The translations under genes and the position numbers were made by a program. Below, in pieces: positions 3,934-55,303 of a stretch of DNA of 64,000 nt. The DNA comes from a virus. The stretch's first letter is position 1. Each line of letters begins with the position of its first letter. Below the pieces are notes generated by a model. That model did not search any database. It was not told the DNA's origin and saw nothing but the letters and a program-made list of their open reading frames with translations. The stretch spans positions 22,763-86,762 of IMG/VR virus record IMGVR_UViG_3300017917_003637; one strand, given 5' to 3'.

Positions 3934-5328
3934 ATGAAAACAGGCTTAACAGACAGGTTAGTATTTTTGGCTGAAACCTTTGACGTATTTGACTGTTCTT
4001 CTGAGGAAATTGTTAAAAAGATTTCTGATTTGGAGAAAGACAATTACGAGGTACAAACCATTCACTACGAGGAAAATATAATTGCATTGGTATCTTCAAA
4101 GGTTAACGACAAGGACCGTGTGATAAAAAAAGTTAGCGTTTGTATGGATGTCTTTGCTGAAATGATTGCAGCTGACCCTACAAACAATAAGATGTATGTT
4201 CAGTGGATGCTTAACATGTTTTCTAGATTTATGAAAGATGTTAAATCTCAACCATATGGAATACGTTTGGTTGGTGAAGATTTGCCTCAAGCTGAAATGT
4301 ATTTAACGTTATTTGAAGATAACAAGAGAAAGAAAAAATTTAAAGACTTATGTCTTGGTAGTTATTCTTTGAAGGGTATTACAGACCCAACGGATATTAA
4401 CCAATACAAGTCTTTGTCACAGTTGTTTGACGCTGTTGACCCGTTCATTGAAAAAGACCCTAGTGCGATTGAAAGGATTATTATGAGGTATGTTGAGATG
4501 GGTAAGGCTATTATTCCTGTAAAGGATAGAAAGTTTACCGTTTACATTCCGTTAACGACAGAAGCTTCTGTTGTATTTAGCAAGTATGCCAACTGGTGTA
4601 CAGCTAGAGAAGGTAACGGTATGTTTAAGAACTATACTGAGAATTATAAAACACCAGATGGCAAACATTCTAAGTTGTATGTTATTATCAACAACAAATT
4701 TTTTGCTGGAGAATCTGATGAAATCTTTCAAGTACACTTTGAAACTAACCAGTTAAAGGATAGAAAGAACGGACAGAACGTTAGCATTTTTGAGAATGTT
4801 ATTTCTGAAAGTGAAGGGGTTGCAAACTTTTTCAAGGAAGAGTTAACATTGTTGGCAAAAAAGAAAAAAACAGTAAAAGGGAATCCTTATTTGGACTATT
4901 TGTTAAGATTTGGATTTGCTGATACATTATTTGAGTTGTTGGAAGAAGACACTCCGATTATTAAATTTATGGATAGAGAAATACCGATGATACCAAACAT
5001 TTCCAAATTTAAAAATTTGGACCAGATTATTATAACGGACGCAAAACTAAAAGAATTGCATCCGTCGATTGGTGATTTGGATAAACTTTGTTTATTGGTA
5101 TTGGCCAACAATAAATTAACATCTTTGCCAAGTGAGATTGGCAAACTAAAAAATTTGGAATTTATGAACATCAAGGGTAATTGTATTCAACATATACCTT
5201 CGGAGATTTCAAAATTAGATAGACAAAATGGCGGGTCGTTATATCGCATAGTGGTTGACCGCGATTCCATAGGGGTAGAAAATTACAATAGACTAAAAGA
5301 GTTGTTACCAACAACTAATTTTAGCTAA
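3934..5328 (+). CDS. Leucine-rich-repeat protein with uncharacterised N-terminal domain
   Basis: C-terminal LxxLxLxxNxLxxLPxxIGxLxxL repeats; central WCTA motif. Confidence 0.8.
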   Translation: MKTGLTDRLVFLAETFDVFDCSSEEIVKKISDLEKDNYEVQTIHYEENIIALVSSKVNDKDRVIKKVSVCMDVFAEMIAADPTNNKMYVQWMLNMFSRFMKDVKSQPYGIRLVGEDLPQAEMYLTLFEDNKRKKKFKDLCLGSYSLKGITDPTDINQYKSLSQLFDAVDPFIEKDPSAIERIIMRYVEMGKAIIPVKDRKFTVYIPLTTEASVVFSKYANWCTAREGNGMFKNYTENYKTPDGKHSKLYVIINNKFFAGESDEIFQVHFETNQLKDRKNGQNVSIFENVISESEGVANFFKEELTLLAKKKKTVKGNPYLDYLLRFGFADTLFELLEEDTPIIKFMDREIPMIPNISKFKNLDQIIITDAKLKELHPSIGDLDKLCLLVLANNKLTSLPSEIGKLKNLEFMNIKGNCIQHIPSEISKLDRQNGGSLYRIVVDRDSIGVENYNRLKELLPTTNFS

Positions 5329-5388: not shown

Positions 5389-5922
5389 ATGAAATGGATT
5401 AGAAACAACAAGCCAATCGAAGAAGATTTAGTAGATTACTTGGAAAAATTGTTCGACGAACAAATGGAAAAAAACAGAACACTTAAAGTATCAATCGGTA
5501 CTGACTCACAAAAAATCAAAGGCACACTTTACAAGTTTGCTACAGTAATCCTTATTACTGCAACTGAAGATTTGGGTGGTGGTGTTATCTGGGGGCGTGG
5601 TGGTATGATTATATCATCAACTTACAACCATGATTTCATGAAAAAAGACAGCGGTGATGGTAGAAAAAGAGACAAGGAACTTGTAAATGAAAGAATGGTG
5701 TTCGAGGTTGGTAAATCAATCGAGGTGGCTACTGAAATTGCTGAATTGCTTGATGTATATGAAATTCCATTGGAGATTCACGCTGATATCAACCCAAACC
5801 CAAAATGGGAATCAAACAAAGCGTTGCAATCAGCTGTTGGTTACATTTTAGGTATGGGTTACGAATTCAAAATTAAACCTGAGGCTTGGGCTGCTTCAAC
5901 TGCTGCTGACAAAAAATGTTAA
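5389..5922 (+). CDS. YkuK/DUF458-like RNase H-fold protein
   Basis: IGTDSQ, EVGKSIEVA, LEIHADIN, IKPEAWAASTAADK motifs. Confidence 0.8.
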   Translation: MKWIRNNKPIEEDLVDYLEKLFDEQMEKNRTLKVSIGTDSQKIKGTLYKFATVILITATEDLGGGVIWGRGGMIISSTYNHDFMKKDSGDGRKRDKELVNERMVFEVGKSIEVATEIAELLDVYEIPLEIHADINPNPKWESNKALQSAVGYILGMGYEFKIKPEAWAASTAADKKC

Positions 5923-6431: not shown

Positions 6432-6473
6432 AAGACTGGGATAGATTTTTTCTGTCCTAGTCTTTTATTTTTT
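6432..6473 (+). terminator. Probable intrinsic terminator
   Basis: AAGACTGGGATAGA / TCTGTCCTAGTCTT hairpin (G-U pairs) then T-rich tract. Confidence 0.6.
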
Positions 6474-6506
6474 ATACCTTTTGTTATATTTACTATAAAA
6501 AGTTTT

Positions 6507-7196
6507 ATGCAAAGGGTTATAGAGAAACTACACATTAGTGAAATCCCACTAATATCAACTGTTACTAGAGATGAATTTATTACTGCTAGTGAAATAGCAT
6601 TTGATTGCAAATTCGATGGACATTCATTATTTTATCCATGGGTGTTACCAAAATCAATACCTAGTAAATTTAAGATTGGTGTGATTGTTGGTTCCAGCGG
6701 TTCTGGTAAATCAACACTTTTAAAAGAATTTGGTGTTGAAGAAACACCAATATGGGATTCAAATAAATCAATCATTTCACATTTTGAAACACCTGAAGAT
6801 GGTATTAACAAGTTAAGTTCAGTTGGGCTTAATTCAGTACCTTCATGGTATAAACCATATCACGTTTTATCCAACGGTGAAAAGTTCAGAGCTGATTTGG
6901 CCAGAAAGATAAGGTCCAATGCTGTTATAGATGAATACACCAGTGTTGTGGATAGAAACGTAGCCAAAGCGGCCAGTGTGTCGTTATCAAGGTATGTAAA
7001 GAATAATGATATTCATAACATTGTATTATCAACATGTCATAGAGATATATTGGATTGGCTTGAACCTGATTGGGTAATAGATACAGATAGTGGTGAGCTA
7101 ATCGACGGTTTTTTTTTGTCCGACCAGAAATCAAACTTGACGTATATCGCACAAGCCATGATTGTTGGAGAATGTTTAGCCAGCATCACTATTTAG
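6507..7196 (+). CDS. ABC-type ATPase domain (N-terminal part of a frameshifted ATPase-GNAT)
   Basis: Walker A GSSGSGKST, signature LSNGEKFR, Walker B AVIDE, H-loop STCH; no membrane domain. Confidence 0.85.
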   Translation: MQRVIEKLHISEIPLISTVTRDEFITASEIAFDCKFDGHSLFYPWVLPKSIPSKFKIGVIVGSSGSGKSTLLKEFGVEETPIWDSNKSIISHFETPEDGINKLSSVGLNSVPSWYKPYHVLSNGEKFRADLARKIRSNAVIDEYTSVVDRNVAKAASVSLSRYVKNNDIHNIVLSTCHRDILDWLEPDWVIDTDSGELIDGFFLSDQKSNLTYIAQAMIVGECLASITI

Positions 7197-7597
7197 ATGC
7201 TAAAGTGAATAAAGCTGCAAGATTTTATGTTGGGATATGGGATGGGAACGTTGTTGCGTTTGGTGCTGCTATAACAATGCCAAATGGAGCTGTTAAAAAC
7301 GCATGGAGGGGTCATAGGACCGTTGTGTTGCCAGATTTTCAAGGAATGGGTATAGGTGTTAGGTTTTCAGATATAATCGCGCAAATCCACTTAAATGAAG
7401 GTCACAGATATTTTTCAAGAACCGCACACCCGCGCATGGGGGAATATAGGGAGAAATCACAGTTGTGGAAACCAACCAGCAAAAATAAAAAATTAAGAAC
7501 TGATGTTAAACATGAGAATGTTTATAACAATCATTTTGCGGATAATAAAAGGGTGTGTTATAGTCATGAATACATAGGCATAAAAAAAGAGGGATAA
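7109..7597 (+). CDS. GNAT acetyltransferase domain in the -1 frame relative to the ATPase
   Basis: RTVVLPDFQGMGIG acetyl-CoA motif; the frame is open from 7097 and reads FFFVRPEIKLDVYR...WRMFSQHHYL from the T9 run (in-frame ATG at 7172). Confidence 0.8.
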   Translation, partial: FFFVRPEIKLDVYRTSHDCWRMFSQHHYLDAKVNKAARFYVGIWDGNVVAFGAAITMPNGAVKNAWRGHRTVVLPDFQGMGIGVRFSDIIAQIHLNEGHRYFSRTAHPRMGEYREKSQLWKPTSKNKKLRTDVKHENVYNNHFADNKRVCYSHEYIGIKKEG

Positions 7598-7609
7598 ACC
7601 CTCTTTTTT
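7582..7609. terminator. Bidirectional terminator between convergent genes
   Basis: A7-GAGGG-ATAAA-CCCTC-T6. Confidence 0.75.
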
Positions 7610-8722: not shown

Positions 8723-11227
8723 TTATGCTTTTTTCTTTGAAGTAGTTTTTTCTATTACTAGAGTTTCCTCATCCTTAGAATATACAATTTTAATCGTATC
8801 CCCTTCTTCAAAGGCTTCTGTTAGAATTTCGTCAGCCACTAAGTCTTCAACGTAATGTTGGATGGCTCTGTTGAGTGGTCTGGCACCGTATTCTTCATCG
8901 TAACCTTGTGTTGCAATAAAATCCAAGGCTTCCTCTGTAATATCCAAATTAAATTTCAACTCAGCAAGTCTGCTTTCCAAGTGTTTGATTTCGATATCGA
9001 TAATCTCTCTGATGTTTTCTTTTGAAAGAGAATTGAACACGATGGCTTCATCAATACGGTTAAGGAATTCTGGTTTGAATTTTTTCTTAAGAGCTTTGTC
9101 AATAATCGCTCTTGTTTTGGCTTGTTCGTTGAATGCGCTAACACCAGTTTCAAATCCCATGTTTTTACCAAATGAGTTTGCTTCTTTAACACCAATGTTA
9201 GAGGTCATAATGATAAGAGCGTTTTTAAAGTTAACCTTACGGCCAAGACCATCGGTTAAATGACCCTCATCAAGCAATTGCAATAGCATATTGAATACAT
9301 CATCATGAGCTTTTTCAATCTCATCAAACAAGATTACACAGTGTGGTTTACGTCTAACTTTTTCAGTTAACTGACCACCTTGGTCGTAACCAACGTAACC
9401 TGGTGGTGGACCAACCAATCGAGATACAGAATGTTTTTCCATGTATTCAGACATGTCAACTCTAACAAGAGCTTCAGCGTCACCATATACATGTTCAGCT
9501 AGCAATTTAGCCAAGAGTGTTTTACCAACACCTGTTGGTCCTAAGAAGATAAATGAACCAACTGGTTTATTTTTATCCTTGATACCGATTCTGTTACGTT
9601 TAATTGCTTTAACAACCTTAACAACAGCATCTTCTTGTCCAATAACTTTTCCGCTCAACTCTTTGTCCATGTTCATAAGACGTTTGCTTTCTTGAGTTGA
9701 AATTTTGTTAAGAGGAATACCAGTCATCATTGAAACAACTTCAGAGATTAACTCAACACCAACTTCAGTTACTTTATCATCTAAGTTTGTCTGCCAATCG
9801 TGGATGGCTTTTTCTAAGTTGTCAGTGATTTCTCTTTCTTTATCACGAAGTTTAGCAGCTTCTTCGTATTGTTGTTTTTTTACAACTTCAGTCTTTTTAT
9901 CAAGGATTTCTTTGATTTGTTCTTCAAGTTCTTTTATATTCTCTGGTTTTTCAACAGATACGTTTGTTGTGGCACCAGCTTCATCCAACACATCGATAGC
10001 CTTGTCTGGCATCGCTCGGTCCATAATGTATCTTGCGGATAGCTTAACACATTCTTCAATGGCTTCTTCGGTGTATTTTACTCTGTGGTGTTTTTCGTAT
10101 TTTTCTTTGATGTTCATCAAAATAACTTTGGTTTGCTCTAAAGTAGGTTCTTCAACAAGCACTTGTTGAAAACGTCTTGTAAGAGCACCGTCTTTTTCGA
10201 TGTTTTCACGGTATTCGTCGAGTGTTGTTGCACCAATGATTTGAATCTCACCTCTAGCCAAGGCTGGTTTAAAGATATTTGAAGCGTCCAGTGAACCGCT
10301 TGAATTACCAGCACCAACAATGGTGTGTAACTCGTCTATGAACAATACGATATCTGGGTTGGATTTACACTCTTCAAGAATGGCTTTCATTCTTTCTTCA
10401 AATTGACCACGGTATTTAGTACCTGCAACAATTGACGCTAAGTCTAGCATGTAGATTTTTTTACCAGTAAGTGTTCTTGGTGCGTTGCCTTCAAAGATAA
10501 GTTGAGCAAGCCCTTCAACGATTGCTGTTTTACCAACACCAGGTTCACCAATCAAAACTGGGTTGTTTTTCTTTCTTCTTGATAGAATTTGAGAAACTCT
10601 TTTGATTTCAACTTCTCTACCTACAACTGGGTCTATTTGACCTTTTTCAACAGCCTTGGAAATGTCTCGACAAAAATTGTCCAACACTGGTGTTTTTGTT
10701 TTGCTGTCTTTGTTCTTGGGTTTTCTGAATGAATCGTTTTCATCGTGGTCTTCATTGCTAAAAGCACTGTTTTTGTGTTCTAATTTGTCCATATTTGTAA
10801 CGGTTTTAAAAAATTTGTTGTAGGTTATACCCATTTCAGCTAGTAAACTAACCAAGGGTGTTTTTGAATCTAGGATACTAAGCATGACGTGAGTAGTATC
10901 AATAATATTGTCTTTTAATTTTTCACAGTGTTTGTCTAAATTTTTGATAATCACTTTCATTTCATCTGAAAAAGGCAAATTATTTCTTCCGTGGTATCCA
11001 GTTCTTGGGGTTAAGTCACTTTTTCTTGTAAAGTCTGAAACCTTATCATATAAGTCAAATGTGTCTATACCCATTATACTTAAGGCTCTAGCACACTCAT
11101 TTTCATTATCAATCATCATAGACAGCACAACGTGTTCAGGCTTAATTCTATTGTCATCATGGCCCTTGGCTTCTTTTGTTGCAATAGTCATAATGATTTT
11201 AACTTTTGGGTCTATTTTTCTGTCCAT
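8723..11227 (-). CDS. clpC: ATP-dependent Clp protease ATP-binding subunit ClpC
   Basis: Clp-N repeats, two AAA modules (GEPGVGKT, GPTGVGKT), UVR-type QYEEAAKLRD, MGF loop, GARPL. Confidence 0.92.
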   Translation of the reverse strand: MDRKIDPKVKIIMTIATKEAKGHDDNRIKPEHVVLSMMIDNENECARALSIMGIDTFDLYDKVSDFTRKSDLTPRTGYHGRNNLPFSDEMKVIIKNLDKHCEKLKDNIIDTTHVMLSILDSKTPLVSLLAEMGITYNKFFKTVTNMDKLEHKNSAFSNEDHDENDSFRKPKNKDSKTKTPVLDNFCRDISKAVEKGQIDPVVGREVEIKRVSQILSRRKKNNPVLIGEPGVGKTAIVEGLAQLIFEGNAPRTLTGKKIYMLDLASIVAGTKYRGQFEERMKAILEECKSNPDIVLFIDELHTIVGAGNSSGSLDASNIFKPALARGEIQIIGATTLDEYRENIEKDGALTRRFQQVLVEEPTLEQTKVILMNIKEKYEKHHRVKYTEEAIEECVKLSARYIMDRAMPDKAIDVLDEAGATTNVSVEKPENIKELEEQIKEILDKKTEVVKKQQYEEAAKLRDKEREITDNLEKAIHDWQTNLDDKVTEVGVELISEVVSMMTGIPLNKISTQESKRLMNMDKELSGKVIGQEDAVVKVVKAIKRNRIGIKDKNKPVGSFIFLGPTGVGKTLLAKLLAEHVYGDAEALVRVDMSEYMEKHSVSRLVGPPPGYVGYDQGGQLTEKVRRKPHCVILFDEIEKAHDDVFNMLLQLLDEGHLTDGLGRKVNFKNALIIMTSNIGVKEANSFGKNMGFETGVSAFNEQAKTRAIIDKALKKKFKPEFLNRIDEAIVFNSLSKENIREIIDIEIKHLESRLAELKFNLDITEEALDFIATQGYDEEYGARPLNRAIQHYVEDLVADEILTEAFEEGDTIKIVYSKDEETLVIEKTTSKKKA

Positions 11228-17934: not shown

Positions 17935-19152
17935 ATGGAAAGAAATTTTAGAATCAACCCAGTTGGTCTTAAAGGAAATGAAATCAACGAGCGTATGAAA
18001 CAACTTATGGGTGTAACACCTATAAACGAAGGTTTATCTCGTTCAACAGTTGAATTAACCAAAATTGGTCCAGATGGTAAAGCATATGGTATTGTAAGAG
18101 AAAATCATGAATATTACATAAAAGTATCTGACAAGACCGAAAACCTTACTGTTGAGGACTTTAAATACATTGGTGGTCTTCAAAATAAAAAATCAGAAGC
18201 GTATCCATCATATGCTAAAGCTACTAAACACTTAAACTTAAAATTTAACTCTATTTGCGAATCATTTGATATTGTGAATACATTCAACGTATTTGTTGAT
18301 GATAACTTGTTATCTGAAGGTGCTGCTAAAGAAGCTACTAAACACATTACAGATGCTAAGGGTAAAGAGTTAGGTGGTAAAGTAAAAGAAGAAGGTGGTG
18401 ATAACTTGGCTGAGAAAAAAGTCATGGATGAATTAGAAGAAGTTACTCTTACTGAAGATGAGTTAGCTATTGACGCTATGCTTAACGAAAGTGATGAAGA
18501 AGACTTGGATGAGTCAGCTCAAGGTGAAGTTGGTGCATATGCTCATGAAAAATCTAAGAAAAAAGACAAAGAAAAAGATGAAGATGAAAAAGACTTAGAC
18601 GAAGCTGAATCTAAAAACAACCCATGGGCTATCTGTACCGCTAGTGTTGGTCGTGAAGACAAAGAAAAATACGAAGCGTGTGTTAGAGACGTTAAAAAAC
18701 AAAAAGGTGTTAAAGAAGAATTAAAAGGTGGTCAACACAAAATCGATGCTAATAAAAATGGTAAGATTGATGGTGAGGATTTTAAACTTCTTAAAAAAGG
18801 TAAAACCAATGAAAACATTGATGACCAGATGTCTACTGACGAATTAATGGATAAACTAGATAATATGTCAGCTAAAGAATTGTTACAATTGTTAGGTGAT
18901 GCTGGTAGAGACTTGAAAAATGTAATTGCTAGAAAATTATCTACAGGTATGGATAAAGCTAGAGATTTTTTTGATAAGCAATATCCAGATGTTAACGAAG
19001 AAATGACTGACAAACAAAAGAAATTTGCTGCTTTGGCCGAACCTAAAGATAAAATCACATATGCTGATAAAATTGCTGGTGCTACCAAAGATGAAGCTAT
19101 GACACTTGAAGAAATTCAAGAGGCGATTGCTGATTTAAAAAAAAAACTTTAA
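17935..19152 (+). CDS. Modular putative head-internal protein, part 1 (ends at a slippery site)
   Basis: 405-aa ORF of short modules separated by xxE sites; ends GAT TTA AAA AAA AAA CTT TAA. Confidence 0.75.
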   Translation: MERNFRINPVGLKGNEINERMKQLMGVTPINEGLSRSTVELTKIGPDGKAYGIVRENHEYYIKVSDKTENLTVEDFKYIGGLQNKKSEAYPSYAKATKHLNLKFNSICESFDIVNTFNVFVDDNLLSEGAAKEATKHITDAKGKELGGKVKEEGGDNLAEKKVMDELEEVTLTEDELAIDAMLNESDEEDLDESAQGEVGAYAHEKSKKKDKEKDEDEKDLDEAESKNNPWAICTASVGREDKEKYEACVRDVKKQKGVKEELKGGQHKIDANKNGKIDGEDFKLLKKGKTNENIDDQMSTDELMDKLDNMSAKELLQLLGDAGRDLKNVIARKLSTGMDKARDFFDKQYPDVNEEMTDKQKKFAALAEPKDKITYADKIAGATKDEAMTLEEIQEAIADLKKKL

Positions 19153-22592: not shown

Positions 22593-23547
22593 AATTAACG
22601 AAGAAGAAAAATTTAAAATCCATGTTGATAAAAAAACGTTGGGTGATGCTAACAAAACAAAAGAGTTAGCTATGCTTAAAAAGAAAAATCCAAACATAGA
22701 ATTTGATTTAGAACCACCTACTTCACAAAGTAGTGTTATTAGTTCTAGTTCTATGATGGAACAACCAGAAGCTATCATTCAACCACAAGACAAAGCCACT
22801 ATTAAATATCTTTCAAATGTTAAACACCCTGAGACTGGTGAAATAGCACAACCATTTAACATTTCAGATAAAAAATATCAGATGGTAAGAGGAATGACAC
22901 CTGATAAAAATGTTGTGTTGGGTGTTTATTGTTTTGATGAATTAAACGAAGATGGTAGCAATAAAATCTACCATGTTGATGAATTTGAAAATAAAGTAGC
23001 AAAACCAATGCTTGAAAGAGAAAAGTTAACAACTGAAAGTGAAAACAAATCTTCACAACCTGAGAGTCTTAATCTTGGTGAATACAAACACTTCATTGTA
23101 AATGAAAAAAGTGGTAAGTTTAAGAAATTTAAAACTATCCCAGAATTAGCCGCTACTACTATGCTTGAAGATGAGAGATATATGGGGTTACAAGAATTTA
23201 AAAAATTCTTTGAAACTAGAGTATTTGGTGCGCCTAAGAAAAAAGAATTGACTGAAGTTGGTATGACTGGTCAAGAAGGTGAAGAAGAAATGACAATTAA
23301 AGCTCAGAAACTTATGGGCCTTATTCAAAAAAGAATCCCATCAAATATTATCGATACCATTAAAACAAACAAAATTGCTCAAAGAGAAGTAATTGCTGCA
23401 TTTGCCGAGTTAATCGGTGTACCTAGAAATGGTCTTACTGGTCTTGTTCAAGGTATTAAAGATTTAGCTAAGACTGGTACTCAACCTCAACAACAAGTTG
23501 CTGAAAGTAGAGTGGTAAAAACAATAAAGAAAAAAGACATAAAATAA
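22576..23547 (+). CDS. Hypothetical protein, probable virion protein
   Basis: 323-aa ORF with INE/LTE/VAE sites, in the head operon. Confidence 0.7.
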   Translation: MSTKNKINEEEKFKIHVDKKTLGDANKTKELAMLKKKNPNIEFDLEPPTSQSSVISSSSMMEQPEAIIQPQDKATIKYLSNVKHPETGEIAQPFNISDKKYQMVRGMTPDKNVVLGVYCFDELNEDGSNKIYHVDEFENKVAKPMLEREKLTTESENKSSQPESLNLGEYKHFIVNEKSGKFKKFKTIPELAATTMLEDERYMGLQEFKKFFETRVFGAPKKKELTEVGMTGQEGEEEMTIKAQKLMGLIQKRIPSNIIDTIKTNKIAQREVIAAFAELIGVPRNGLTGLVQGIKDLAKTGTQPQQQVAESRVVKTIKKKDIK

Positions 23548-42301: not shown

Positions 42302-43030
42302 CTATAACCCTCTTTTTGTTAGTATTTCATACAAATCTTTAAATCTTTTCATAGCAATCCTTATGTCTTTGGTTGAAAGATTTGTATAATTTCTCATTGT
42401 TTCTAAAACAGAGTTTTTATTATATTTAGAACCACCGTCGAAACCTTCAAATGCGGTTTCCCAATTTTCGAGTATGTAAATCAAAGCATGGCCTACTTTT
42501 TTTTCATTCTCATTTAGTTTTTTTTTGGGTGGTAAGTTTTCATCATCCATTTCATCTTTAATATTACTAATTAAATTTAAAATGAAATCGTCCATAACAA
42601 AACTATCGTTATCAATCACGTATGTTAAATCTTGCCTTTCTTCAAAATCTGTCATCATATCCTCATATGATGCAGTTTGTTTTAAGTATTTTTCGTCTTT
42701 GATTAATAACCCTAAAATGTAGTTTTTACTTATGGTTCCAAAGTATGAATAAGCTTTTTTTCCTCTTCCAGCTTCAAATTTATGTACTTTTGTCATCAAG
42801 AAAGAAACGGTGTCACTATGAAGTTCTTCATAAGTTTCACCCTTTCTATATAACTTGTATCTCCTGATGATTGCTTCTATCATTTTATCCAATGGCGCTT
42901 TTAAGAACTCATTGAATATATTGTTCCTTTCGTTGGTGTCGTTGGATTCTAAAAATCTAATAACTGCTTCTTCTTCTTCGGGACCAAAATACATTTCGTT
43001 TTTTCTTTTGCGTCCTCGTCTAGTAGTCAT
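42302..43030 (-). CDS. Phage sigma factor, T4 gp55-like late sigma
   Basis: Sigma region-2-like YEELHSDTVSFLMTKVHKFEAGRGKKAYSYFGTISKNY. Confidence 0.65.
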   Translation of the reverse strand: MTTRRGRKRKNEMYFGPEEEEAVIRFLESNDTNERNNIFNEFLKAPLDKMIEAIIRRYKLYRKGETYEELHSDTVSFLMTKVHKFEAGRGKKAYSYFGTISKNYILGLLIKDEKYLKQTASYEDMMTDFEERQDLTYVIDNDSFVMDDFILNLISNIKDEMDDENLPPKKKLNENEKKVGHALIYILENWETAFEGFDGGSKYNKNSVLETMRNYTNLSTKDIRIAMKRFKDLYEILTKRGL

Positions 43031-53898: not shown

Positions 53899-54705
53899 TT
53901 ATGGTAAAATTTGTTTTAGTTTATTATAAATAAAGTCGTCAGCTATTAAATATTTTTTAGCTAATTCAAAATTGGTTTTAATCGAATCCATTTTAGAGTT
54001 GTAATAATTTTCGTCTAGTTGGTTAATAACTGAATTTAAATCATTTATATCATTTATTATAACCATACCATTTAAATCAAAAAATTCACCAATAGATGGA
54101 CACCCCCAATAAATAGGTATCGTTCCTGTTATAAAGGAATCTATCAGTTTTTCACTAAAATAATAATCTTTTTTACAATTTTCAATGACAATTGAAAAAC
54201 GATAATCTTTTAAAGCGCTTATTTTTTTTTCAATAGGATTATTAAAACCATATTTATCTATGTTTGTTATACTATTAAATATTAAGTGTCTAAACAAATG
54301 GCCAGAAGTGCTTTTTTTAGCTGATAAAATCATAGATATGTTTTTAGATTTATCGTGTATTTGTCTGTCTTCAACATCAATCCAACAACCACCATACGGT
54401 ACCAACACAAATTTTTCAGATATTGATAACAATGATTTATCGAAAGTAAAAATTAAATCAAACTTGTGATAATTATCCTTAATAAAATTATACGCAAATG
54501 AAGTTATTTCTGGTGACTCTAACAACCATGCAAACTTTTTTTTATTAGTAAAATTATCCACAAATTTTAATGAAAAATCTGTAAATATTAAATACTCTTC
54601 ATCGTATTTTCTAACCCAATCAAAATATTCTGGTTCATTATACCAGCTGCTAGATTTTGCATGTGAAAACATTGAATCGTGTATGTATAATTTATCTCTT
54701 GACAT
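53899..54705 (-). CDS. Alpha-1,3/4-fucosyltransferase-like (GT10)
   Basis: YRFSIVIENCKKDYYFSEKLIDSFITGTIPIYWG; ATG at 54705. Confidence 0.85.
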   Translation of the reverse strand: MSRDKLYIHDSMFSHAKSSSWYNEPEYFDWVRKYDEEYLIFTDFSLKFVDNFTNKKKFAWLLESPEITSFAYNFIKDNYHKFDLIFTFDKSLLSISEKFVLVPYGGCWIDVEDRQIHDKSKNISMILSAKKSTSGHLFRHLIFNSITNIDKYGFNNPIEKKISALKDYRFSIVIENCKKDYYFSEKLIDSFITGTIPIYWGCPSIGEFFDLNGMVIINDINDLNSVINQLDENYYNSKMDSIKTNFELAKKYLIADDFIYNKLKQILP

Positions 54706-55303
54706 AAAACGCATCACCCCAAGTTCCACCATCCCAAGTGGTTTCAACTCTTTCAAACCCATAGTTATTTAAAAAAGAATCAAGTTCTTCAATTCTAGCA
54801 CAACCTTTGTATAGTTCAGCTCTGTTAACTTCAGTCATAATGTAATCAATATGTTTAAGGTATTCGGAACCACCTTTAAACACTTCCAATTCATATCCTT
54901 GAACATCGATGTTTATAAAGTTAAATTTTTCTTTATCACTAATGAAATTATCTAATTTTGTGATTTTAACAGTTTCTTTACCGTTAAAGTGAATGTTAGG
55001 GTGTTGAACTAAGTGATACTCTGGCTGTAGAATCGAACTTGATTGACCATTATTTATTGTTTCGGTGAACATCTCAATTTCACCTTCAGTGTTACCTAAA
55101 GCCAAATTAAGTAATACAGCTTTATCTCCAACATTTTCTTTTAATTTGTTAAATGTTGATTGTACGGGTTCAAAAAACATAATGTTTTGAACACCTAATT
55201 TTTCGTAAGTATTATATTCTTGACCAACGTGTGCACCTATGTGTAGAACACCTTTGATTTTTAAATCATACTTTTTGGTTAAATTTTCTAAGTTTAATAA
55301 CAT
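54692..55303 (-). CDS. FkbM-family methyltransferase
   Basis: LHIGAHVGQE, FEP, NIDVQGYELEVFKG, WGDAFY. Confidence 0.88.
   Translation of the reverse strand: MLLNLENLTKKYDLKIKGVLHIGAHVGQEYNTYEKLGVQNIMFFEPVQSTFNKLKENVGDKAVLLNLALGNTEGEIEMFTETINNGQSSSILQPEYHLVQHPNIHFNGKETVKITKLDNFISDKEKFNFINIDVQGYELEVFKGGSEYLKHIDYIMTEVNRAELYKGCARIEELDSFLNNYGFERVETTWDGGTWGDAFYVKR

Follow-up and report, generated by a model that had tools for sequence, protein, structure and literature searches.

One gene, two readings: a conserved candidate -1 frameshift between an ABC-type ATPase and a GNAT domain in an uncultured giant phage

When an ATPase reading frame closes and an acyltransferase continues in another frame, are these two genes, one damaged gene, or one gene that is meant to be read in two ways? 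This question is raised by positions 6507-7597 (+ strand) of a 64,000-nucleotide (nt) stretch of viral DNA (hereafter the window; positions 22,763 to 86,762 of IMG/VR record IMGVR_UViG_3300017917_003637), a gene of an uncultured giant (~360 kb) T4-like phage. The answer that we consider very probable, judging from the sequence and its relatives, is one gene with two readings, in which standard decoding would give a 229-amino-acid (aa) ABC-type ATPase and a programmed -1 shift at a run of nine T residues (T9) would give a 363-aa ATPase-GNAT, the two being made at a fixed ratio, with DNA acylation as a candidate activity. Profile comparison is consistent with a single unit: phrog_11143 (357 positions, function unknown) matches the first open reading frame (ORF A) at 39-194 (E 2e-61) and the -1 ORF at 200-353 (E 1.8e-43), and by this match the two ORFs are assigned to one gene of the ABC-ATPase-GNAT family phrog_11143.

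The slip site and its conservation

ORF A runs on the + strand from ATG 6507 to TAG 7194-7196 and encodes 229 aa. Its zero frame reads GGT TTT TTT TTG through the T9 run at 7109-7117, which has GG directly 5' and G directly 3', and continues past the run for 26 further codons to the stop. The -1 frame is closed by TGA 7094-7096 and is then open from 7097 to TAA 7595-7597. Two heptamers of the X_XXY_YYZ form stand in the zero-frame register at the run, T_TTT_TTT (7109-7115) and the overlapping T_TTT_TTG (7112-7118). A slip after the codon at 7113-7115 would join the 203 aa encoded by 6507-7115 to 160 aa read from 7115-7597, the latter comprising a linker and a complete GNAT, for a product of 363 aa. 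The run, the opening of the -1 frame at 7097, the 26-codon zero-frame tail and the 363-aa fusion had all been part of the original prediction, made from the window's letters, and the sequence bears them out.

The T9 run is more than chance. The genome has a G+C content of 32%, and long A/T runs are nonetheless depleted: there are 5 A/T runs of at least nine in the window against 24.8 ± 7.9 expected from dinucleotide shuffles (100 of 100 shuffles held 5 or more), so that selection is likely to act on the few still present. The sole other run of at least nine at an ORF junction in the window is an A10 run on the + strand at 19137-19146 (T10 on the - strand), and the phage seems to employ homopolymer recoding at least twice, at T9 7109-7117 and at this A10. 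Two further T9 runs, at 42518-42526 and 54222-54230, read as A9 on the coding strand, each within a long ORF of the minus strand (42302-43030 and 53899-54762), and neither coincides with an evident break of frame.

Conservation was assessed in 80 related viral loci (numbered with the prefix L), in each of which both halves were placed by tblastn. About 62 of the 80 carry GG-T9 with the GNAT in the -1 frame. One locus (L018) has T8C and reads T_TTT_TTC with the register unchanged, and three (L063-65) have GGA AAT TTT, that is, A_AAT_TTT in the same register and with no homopolymer. Three others (L053, L055/56) carry T10 and are fused in frame, as are about 11 distant loci (50-58% identity) that have no run. 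Asking whether homologs are fused or split at this position was a check that the original prediction had named, and the outcome is a gene split at T9 in most of the 80 loci and fused at the same junction in the T10 alleles and the distant loci. In every split relative the GNAT stands in the -1 frame, with no case of +1 or of separated ORFs, and all 50 of the 50 virtual -1 products are open, with lengths of 359-364 aa. In a quick tree, whose root is arbitrary, the T10 forms and L018 nest within the T9 clade.

Selection on the site and on the frame behind it is also visible. TTC occurs at the three codons of the run in 0 of 48, 0 of 50 and 1 of 48 sequences, compared with ~16% at other conserved Phe codons, and the full-length T9 is kept in 47 of the 48 run-bearing unique sequences even though TTC would be synonymous at the last codon. 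Across frameshifted loci, the GNAT ORF has a median ratio of nonsynonymous to synonymous substitution (dN/dS) of 0.17 at a median proportion of synonymous differences (pS) of 0.64, with synonymous sites close to saturation; between the window and L001, dN is 0.06 and dS 0.62 for this ORF. The -1 ORF is therefore under purifying selection, and the slip signal and the frame split are conserved across deep divergence.

The two predicted products each have counterparts among known sequences. A nucleotide search of cultured phages with the locus gave no match, and only the protein-level search gave homologues. More than 100 protein clusters are exactly 229 aa long, at 76-99% identity to ORF A. Another relative, P0018, is 363 aa long and encoded in frame, is 95% identical over the ATPase, and has the junction G-F-F-F-V-R-P, which is that of the predicted trans-frame product. 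With P0018 as the query, thousands of in-frame fusions of ~350-365 aa are recovered at an identity of at least 52%.

Where the GNAT begins is a further point on which the frames can be judged. The first ATG of the GNAT ORF (7172-7174, + strand) is not its real start. In an alignment with 45 in-frame relatives, residues R3, P4 and W18 of the -1 product, all encoded 5' of ATG 7172, are invariant, and Met7172 is not conserved in the family; in three frameshifted relatives the codon is CTG (L040), ATC (L050) or GTG (L038). In an AlphaFold2 model of the -1 product (mean predicted local distance difference test score, pLDDT, 87), residues 9-13 form GNAT strand 1 and residues 15-20 form helix 1, with Met20 following the strand and standing at the end of the helix, and solved GNATs align from residue 4-8 of the -1 product onward with Z scores of 12-14. 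The GNAT does not start at Met7172, because the R, P and W residues and the first strand and helix are encoded upstream of it. The original prediction had set against itself a GNAT that begins at this Met behind an unconserved RPEI..W segment, and the invariant residues decide that comparison in favour of the frameshift.

Routes from one frame to the other

How, then, might the two frames be joined? Standard decoding of 6507-7196 would yield a soluble ABC-type ATPase of 229 aa that ends in a short tail read out of frame, as the profile, the fold and the 229-aa clusters suggest. The most likely route to the longer form would be tandem slippage of tRNA-Phe on T_TTT_TTT or T_TTT_TTG into the -1 frame, perhaps aided by a stem-loop at 7124-7168, and slippage of RNA polymerase to give a U10 transcript may add to it; the same 363-aa protein would come from either route, and this would be the protein that distant relatives encode in a single frame. 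The slip would set a fixed ratio of free ATPase to ATPase-GNAT; the excess of free ATPase in the original prediction, which had not weighed polymerase slippage as a route, would be a conjecture about the efficiency of this slip.

The stem-loop lies within 7119-7169 (+ strand), 3' of the slip site, with 7124-7133 pairing with 7159-7168 in 9 of 10 pairs around a 25-nt loop. It was found solely by pairwise duplex folding, as alignment columns 14-25 with 51-62. The clearest versions of this stem are in relatives: a perfect stem of 12 bp in L018, which has T_TTT_TTC (-19.7 kcal/mol, z -4.6), of 13 bp in L063, which has A_AAT_TTT (-25.5 kcal/mol, z -5.9), of 10 bp in L064, also with A_AAT_TTT (-19.9 kcal/mol as a duplex), and of 11 bp in L057, which has T9 followed by A (-15.9 kcal/mol, z -3.9). 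All four are in the same register as the stem of the window and start 6 nt after the heptamer. A perfect stem is found in 3 of 3 unique sequences without a full T9 and in 1 of 48 with it, and 66% of cells are paired in the stem register against 18-44% in slid registers. Our reading of the family site is that of a canonical heptamer-spacer-hairpin cassette, in which a longer slippery run appears to offset a weaker stem.

Several results weigh against this reading. The window's own fold (-12.5 kcal/mol, z -1.35) is not significant alone, a shuffle control for covariation was unconvincing (42 of 500), and RNAalifold gave no consensus structure at the slip site for 51 sequences. In addition, the near-universal retention of T9 fits slippage by RNA polymerase as well as it fits tandem heptamers.

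Elements 5' of the slip site and around the ORF pair were also considered. A Shine-Dalgarno-like GGTGAG at 7091-7096 (+ strand) stands 12 nt 5' of the slip site and could be a 5' stimulator, with GGNGA conserved in relatives and a spacing that resembles that of the dnaX 5' element; we only infer this role, because the same bases encode a conserved Gly-Glu. The pair of ORFs is bracketed by predicted intrinsic terminators, that of the upstream gene at 6432-6464 (+ strand; a 14-pair stem followed by a T-tail), which would form the 5' boundary of the transcription unit, and one at 7583-7609 (+ strand) that would close it, and no promoter or terminator was found between the two ORFs. A TATAAAAA box at 6494-6501 might be taken for a promoter of the T4-late type; we rejected it, as it ends just 5 nt before the ATG.

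The family extends to cultured phages, and here too both arrangements occur. The protein search gave in-frame homologues in Aeromonas phage PX29, in Burkholderia phage phiE255, and in Nonlabens, Gordonia, Porphyromonas, Pseudomonas and Pasteurella phages. Split homologues are found in four Firmicutes phages, all four with the GNAT in the -1 frame and with the switch in the interdomain linker, at different codons. In Enterococcus phage 9184 the site is A_AAA_AAG, which a 7-nt spacer separates from an 11-bp hairpin, and Oenococcus phage unk162 has A_AAG_GGC at its frame switch; the switches of a Streptococcus phage (GGTTTTT) and a Thomasclavelia phage (a G5 run) are not canonical heptamers. That the switches fall in the same linker at different codons indicates that recoding arose, or moved, more than once at this joint.

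A 40% identical homologue in Tenacibaculum phage pT24 (LC168164; L093) presents a different irregularity, an in-frame TGA at L093:3071-3073, within a GNAT strand, and is annotated as two same-frame 'ABC transporter' coding sequences. A nonsense mutation, an error in sequencing or a recoded codon might each account for the TGA; readthrough recoding was rejected as an account of it, as it lies in a GNAT strand and not in the linker.

Three other explanations of the split have to be weighed against a programmed shift. Were these two separate genes, coupling or reinitiation would start the GNAT on its own at ATG 7172, and the fusion would not exist. Gene callers and GenBank annotators do record two ORFs, ATG 7172 is present in most T9 relatives, and a GGAG lies just 5' of it; however, the end of this GGAG is only 1-2 nt from the ATG, the Met is absent from three relatives and is not conserved in the family, and the invariant R, P and W and the first strand and helix of the fold are encoded 5' of it. 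Neither the fusion of distant relatives and T10 alleles at the same junction nor the invariable -1 frame of the GNAT is to be expected of separate genes, and we regard this account as highly improbable. It is also very unlikely that the T9 is the 'off' state of a gene switched on at T10 through slippage in replication, or that it reflects an assembly error or a pseudogene. Homopolymers are error-prone in sequencing, and in-frame T10 alleles do stand within the T9 clade (L053, L055/56 and the 95%-identical P0018). Yet the T9 recurs in more than 60 independent assemblies from different samples that span saturated synonymous divergence, the downstream ORF has no stops and evolves at a dN/dS of 0.17, and the in-register heptamers of relatives that lack a homopolymer cannot phase-vary. 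The T9 frame break is not an assembly error, and neither error, decay nor an 'off' allele can explain the split, because the T9 is conserved, the GNAT is under constraint and TTC is avoided in the run. The recoding part of the original prediction is in this respect well supported, by the conserved slip site, purifying selection, the invariant residues 5' of Met7172 and the in-frame fused relatives.

The remaining explanation concerns the machine that slips rather than the slip itself. RNA polymerase may stutter on the T9, with a fraction of U10 mRNA encoding the fusion and the ribosome playing a minor part in the window. In bacteria, RNA polymerase slips on A/T runs of nine or more, and a U10 transcript would encode the identical 363-aa protein. 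The full length of the T9 in 47 of 48 run-bearing sequences despite a synonymous alternative, the hairpin, poor in almost every T9 form and strong wherever the full T9 is missing, the purging of long A/T runs elsewhere in the genome, and the A10 run at the ORF junction 19137-19146 of the same phage are all consistent with this. On the other hand, relatives use A_AAT_TTT or T_TTT_TTC with a strong hairpin, and Enterococcus phage 9184 uses A_AAA_AAG with a hairpin, and none of these is a polymerase slip site; moreover, the T9 holds two overlapping in-register ribosomal heptamers, which explain its conservation at full length equally well. We think it rather unlikely that polymerase slippage is the main route. 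Lineages without a full T9 keep an in-register heptamer together with a strong hairpin, and this points to ribosomal -1 frameshifting for the family; the evidence favours ribosomal frameshifting as the family's mechanism, with RNA-polymerase slippage perhaps sharing in this window.

Domains, neighbours and a candidate target

What would the two products do? Pfam finds an ABC-type P-loop in the first ORF and Acetyltransf_1 (E 2e-5) in the second. On the + strand, the ATPase carries a predicted Walker A, G-S-S-G-S-G-K-S, at residues 62-69 (6690-6713; G62, S64, G65, G67 and K68 invariant), an ABC signature, L-S-N-G-E, at residues 121-125 (6867-6881; L121, S122 and G124 invariant), which aligns to the LSGGQ of solved ABC ATPases, a Walker B with the catalytic Glu, A-V-I-D-E, at 6921-6935 (D142 and E143 invariant), and an H-loop His178 at 7038-7040 (invariant). 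The model of the N-terminal domain (pLDDT 89) has the fold of an ABC nucleotide-binding domain, with MalK, Wzt, MetN and MJ0796 as best matches. As transporter nucleotide-binding domains dominate the whole-protein Foldseek result, the GNAT was folded alone. No gene for a membrane partner is found near the ATPase.

The C-terminal domain is a complete GNAT whose closest folds are the generic acetyltransferases RimI, Naa50 and SpeG (Z 12-14). It has a Q-G-M-G-I-G at 7340-7357 (+ strand) that corresponds to the acyl-CoA pyrophosphate-binding motif Q-x-x-G-x-G, with the Q and the three G residues invariant, which argues for acyl-CoA as the presumed donor. We conclude that this is a generic acyl-CoA-type GNAT and probably not a member of the Mom family; searches of NCBIfam and PADLOC gave P-loop noise only.

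That DNA is the target is suggested from outside the window. In the part of PMC7824862 that cites Iyer et al. 2013, the ABC-ATPase-GNAT family is predicted to acylate a DNA nucleobase, and Tenacibaculum phage pT24 is named there for this predicted DNA-base acyl-modification family. The Joint Genome Institute (JGI) label for the family is 'ABC-type ATPase with predicted acetyltransferase domain'. A ParB-like gene lies directly upstream in five cultured phages (Gordonia phages Axumite and Jace, Pasteurella phage Pmp13, and the Streptococcus and Oenococcus phages), as it does in at least 41 of 80 bacterial loci, mostly of Planctomycetota and Nonomuraea, and other enzymes that modify DNA bases have ParB-like activators (PMC13229309; Dpd summary in PMC12839542). 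A formyltransferase gene is located 3' in phiE255, Pseudomonas phage Komp_PAO1_1, a Porphyromonas phage and Axumite, and genes for DNA polymerase, primase and exonuclease flank the gene in the Thomasclavelia and Enterococcus phages. This survey of neighbourhoods elsewhere supports a DNA-directed role.

Some of these neighbourhoods hold observations of their own. In the Streptococcus and Oenococcus phages the upstream gene carries the label 'DNA modification methylase' and is a homologue of ParB-like nuclease-domain proteins (E 1e-7 to 1e-38), and gene 3 of Axumite, called a 'tRNA-methyltransferase', has the phiE255 formyltransferase as its homologue (E 4e-48); these GenBank labels (L083:2207-2725, L084:2129-2740 and L087:1805-2452) are probably mistaken. 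In Jace, the ParB-like/ATPase-GNAT pair is followed by gp87 (L091:3379-3804), an aspartate decarboxylase that forms beta-alanine and that may hint at the acyl or amino-acid moiety of that lineage. Chromosomes of Planctomycetota and Nonomuraea often carry an in-frame ATPase-GNAT gene preceded by a ParB-like one (L095-L174), so the module is not restricted to phages.

Closer to the window, the evidence on function runs the other way. A ParB-like gene lies within 2.5 kb in 0 of 80 giant-phage loci, and PF02195 was not found in two of three complete giant-phage relatives and is ~70 kb from the gene in the third. A search that covered the window's record (26% complete) and four relatives among the giant phages, of which three are 100% complete, gave no formyltransferase (PF00551), and it gave a ParB-like gene (PF02195) in one genome only, at a distance from the ATPase-GNAT gene. 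The window's own neighbours are uninformative on function, and the best structural matches of the GNAT are protein and small-molecule acetyltransferases. Among those neighbours are a full-length ClpB/ClpC-type double AAA+ chaperone of 834 aa (8723-11227, - strand), an RNase H-like PF04308 protein (5389-5922, + strand) and a 464-aa protein with C-terminal leucine-rich repeats (3934-5328, + strand), all three of them unusual cargo for a phage.

Taking both sides together, a predicted DNA modification is a reasonable function for the ATPase-GNAT, and that DNA is the target of the window's enzyme is a tentative proposal, nearly as plausible as its negation. The enzyme would probably be an ATP-dependent acyl-CoA acyltransferase acting on DNA, with nucleobase acylation as the predicted reaction and phage anti-restriction as the setting. 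The free ATPase and the fusion may form a mixed dimer of the ATP-sandwich type that is usual for ABC domains, which would give one GNAT per dimer. It is tempting to go further and to speculate that the frameshift is the stoichiometry device of a new DNA hypermodification enzyme, in which an asymmetric ABC dimer would clamp DNA on ATP binding and acylate a nucleobase from acyl-CoA, and that the slip evolved several times in unrelated lineages (giant T4-like, Enterococcus, Oenococcus, Streptococcus and Thomasclavelia phages) because the two-product output is so important; we regard this fuller picture as possible and rather doubtful.

Comparison with known systems

The finding matters in part for annotation. 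The family is very abundant, with thousands of metagenomic members and representatives in phages of Aeromonas, Gordonia, Streptococcus, Enterococcus, Burkholderia and others, and it is usually mis-annotated as two genes ('ABC transporter' and 'hypothetical'), so that recognising the recoding corrects the annotation. Programmed frameshifts of phages are rarely documented outside tail chaperones, dnaX and transposases. Our literature search, which did not cover the text of the family-defining 2013 paper, found no report of a frameshift in the ABC-ATPase-GNAT family; the PRFect paper does not mention this family, and the search found no publications on COG2401 and the ABC-type ATPase-acetyltransferase fusion. 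We take the recoding to show a need for both the free ATPase and the fusion. Locking the frame with T10, or killing the slip, would offer a clean experimental handle on the published prediction of a new DNA base acylation, and the sites that occur in nature (T9, T_TTT_TTC and A_AAT_TTT), with hairpins of graded strength, would be a system in which to study the trade-off between the slippery site and the strength of the structure.

Within phrog_11143, the window's gene is a phage member whose ORFs together span the profile and keep all ABC and GNAT motifs. It differs from other members in the conserved -1 slip site that interrupts the fusion, and the ParB-like and formyltransferase partners of those members are not found in the window.

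The original prediction had called the enzyme possibly Mom-like. Mom of phage Mu is a GNAT that takes glycine from Gly-tRNA and attaches it to N6 of adenine in double-stranded DNA (PMC13219725; PDB 8BV8), and a helix-turn-helix-like insertion in its GNAT core is essential for activity (PMC13219725). The window's protein shares with it the GNAT fold, a phage origin and a proposed anti-restriction role in DNA base acylation, which is here a prediction, and the ATPase-GNAT cassette sits after tail genes in Mu-like phiE255 and in Pseudomonas and Porphyromonas phages, a position like that of mom in Mu. Beyond the fold of the superfamily, no resemblance to Mom was found: the Pfam and PHROG matches are to generic GNATs only, the 50 best structural matches listed do not include 8BV8, and no helix-turn-helix-like insertion is predicted in the AlphaFold2 model of the -1 product, which has canonical GNAT helices only. 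The sole insertion in this GNAT, at residues ~121-146, is basic, has a pLDDT of 60-73 and is predicted to be non-helical. Unlike Mom, which uses a charged tRNA as donor and needs no ATPase, the window's protein keeps the canonical acyl-CoA motif and has an ABC ATPase. 'Mom-like' therefore holds loosely, in the sense that published work (PMC7824862) predicts acylation of a DNA nucleobase for the family and that the family has ParB-like neighbours elsewhere, and it does not extend to any Mom-specific feature that we could find in this generic GNAT.

A second enzymatic parallel is TmcA/NAT10, an ATPase-coupled GNAT that makes N4-acetylcytidine (ac4C) in tRNA and rRNA (PMC13219725). In both cases a P-loop ATPase is joined to a GNAT, and TmcA/NAT10 acetylates the exocyclic amine of a nucleobase at the cost of acetyl-CoA and ATP. 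In contrast to the window's protein, TmcA has a helicase-type ATPase and RNA-binding domains, is ~670 aa long and involves no frameshift, and their relation is judged on the shared GNAT fold only.

For the recoding itself, closer parallels lie outside DNA modification. In the E. coli dnaX gene, tau and gamma are produced through a programmed -1 frameshift at A_AAA_AAG with a Shine-Dalgarno-like 5' element and a 3' hairpin, and in Thermus dnaX the slip is transcriptional, on A9. Like dnaX, the window's locus is one ATPase gene that would give a full-length and a truncated product in a fixed ratio, with a heptamer or homopolymer at the domain boundary followed by a hairpin, and lineages appear to differ in whether the ribosome or the polymerase slips while the outcome is the same. 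The protein family and the biology differ, as does the direction: in E. coli dnaX the shifted frame ends at once and the slip makes the short form, whereas here the slip would add a whole enzymatic domain and make the long form. In this last respect the locus resembles the frameshift of the phage lambda G/GT tail assembly chaperone and the OrfA-OrfAB frameshift of IS3/IS911, in which a -1 slip extends a short, abundant product to a rarer fusion with an extra domain, and in which the position of the slip is conserved across very divergent phages while the slippery sequence changes. Those are structural-chaperone or transposase genes, whereas this gene would encode an enzyme made of an ABC ATPase and a GNAT. 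By analogy, then, the mechanism would be a device of the dnaX or lambda G/GT type, one gene yielding two products at a set ratio.

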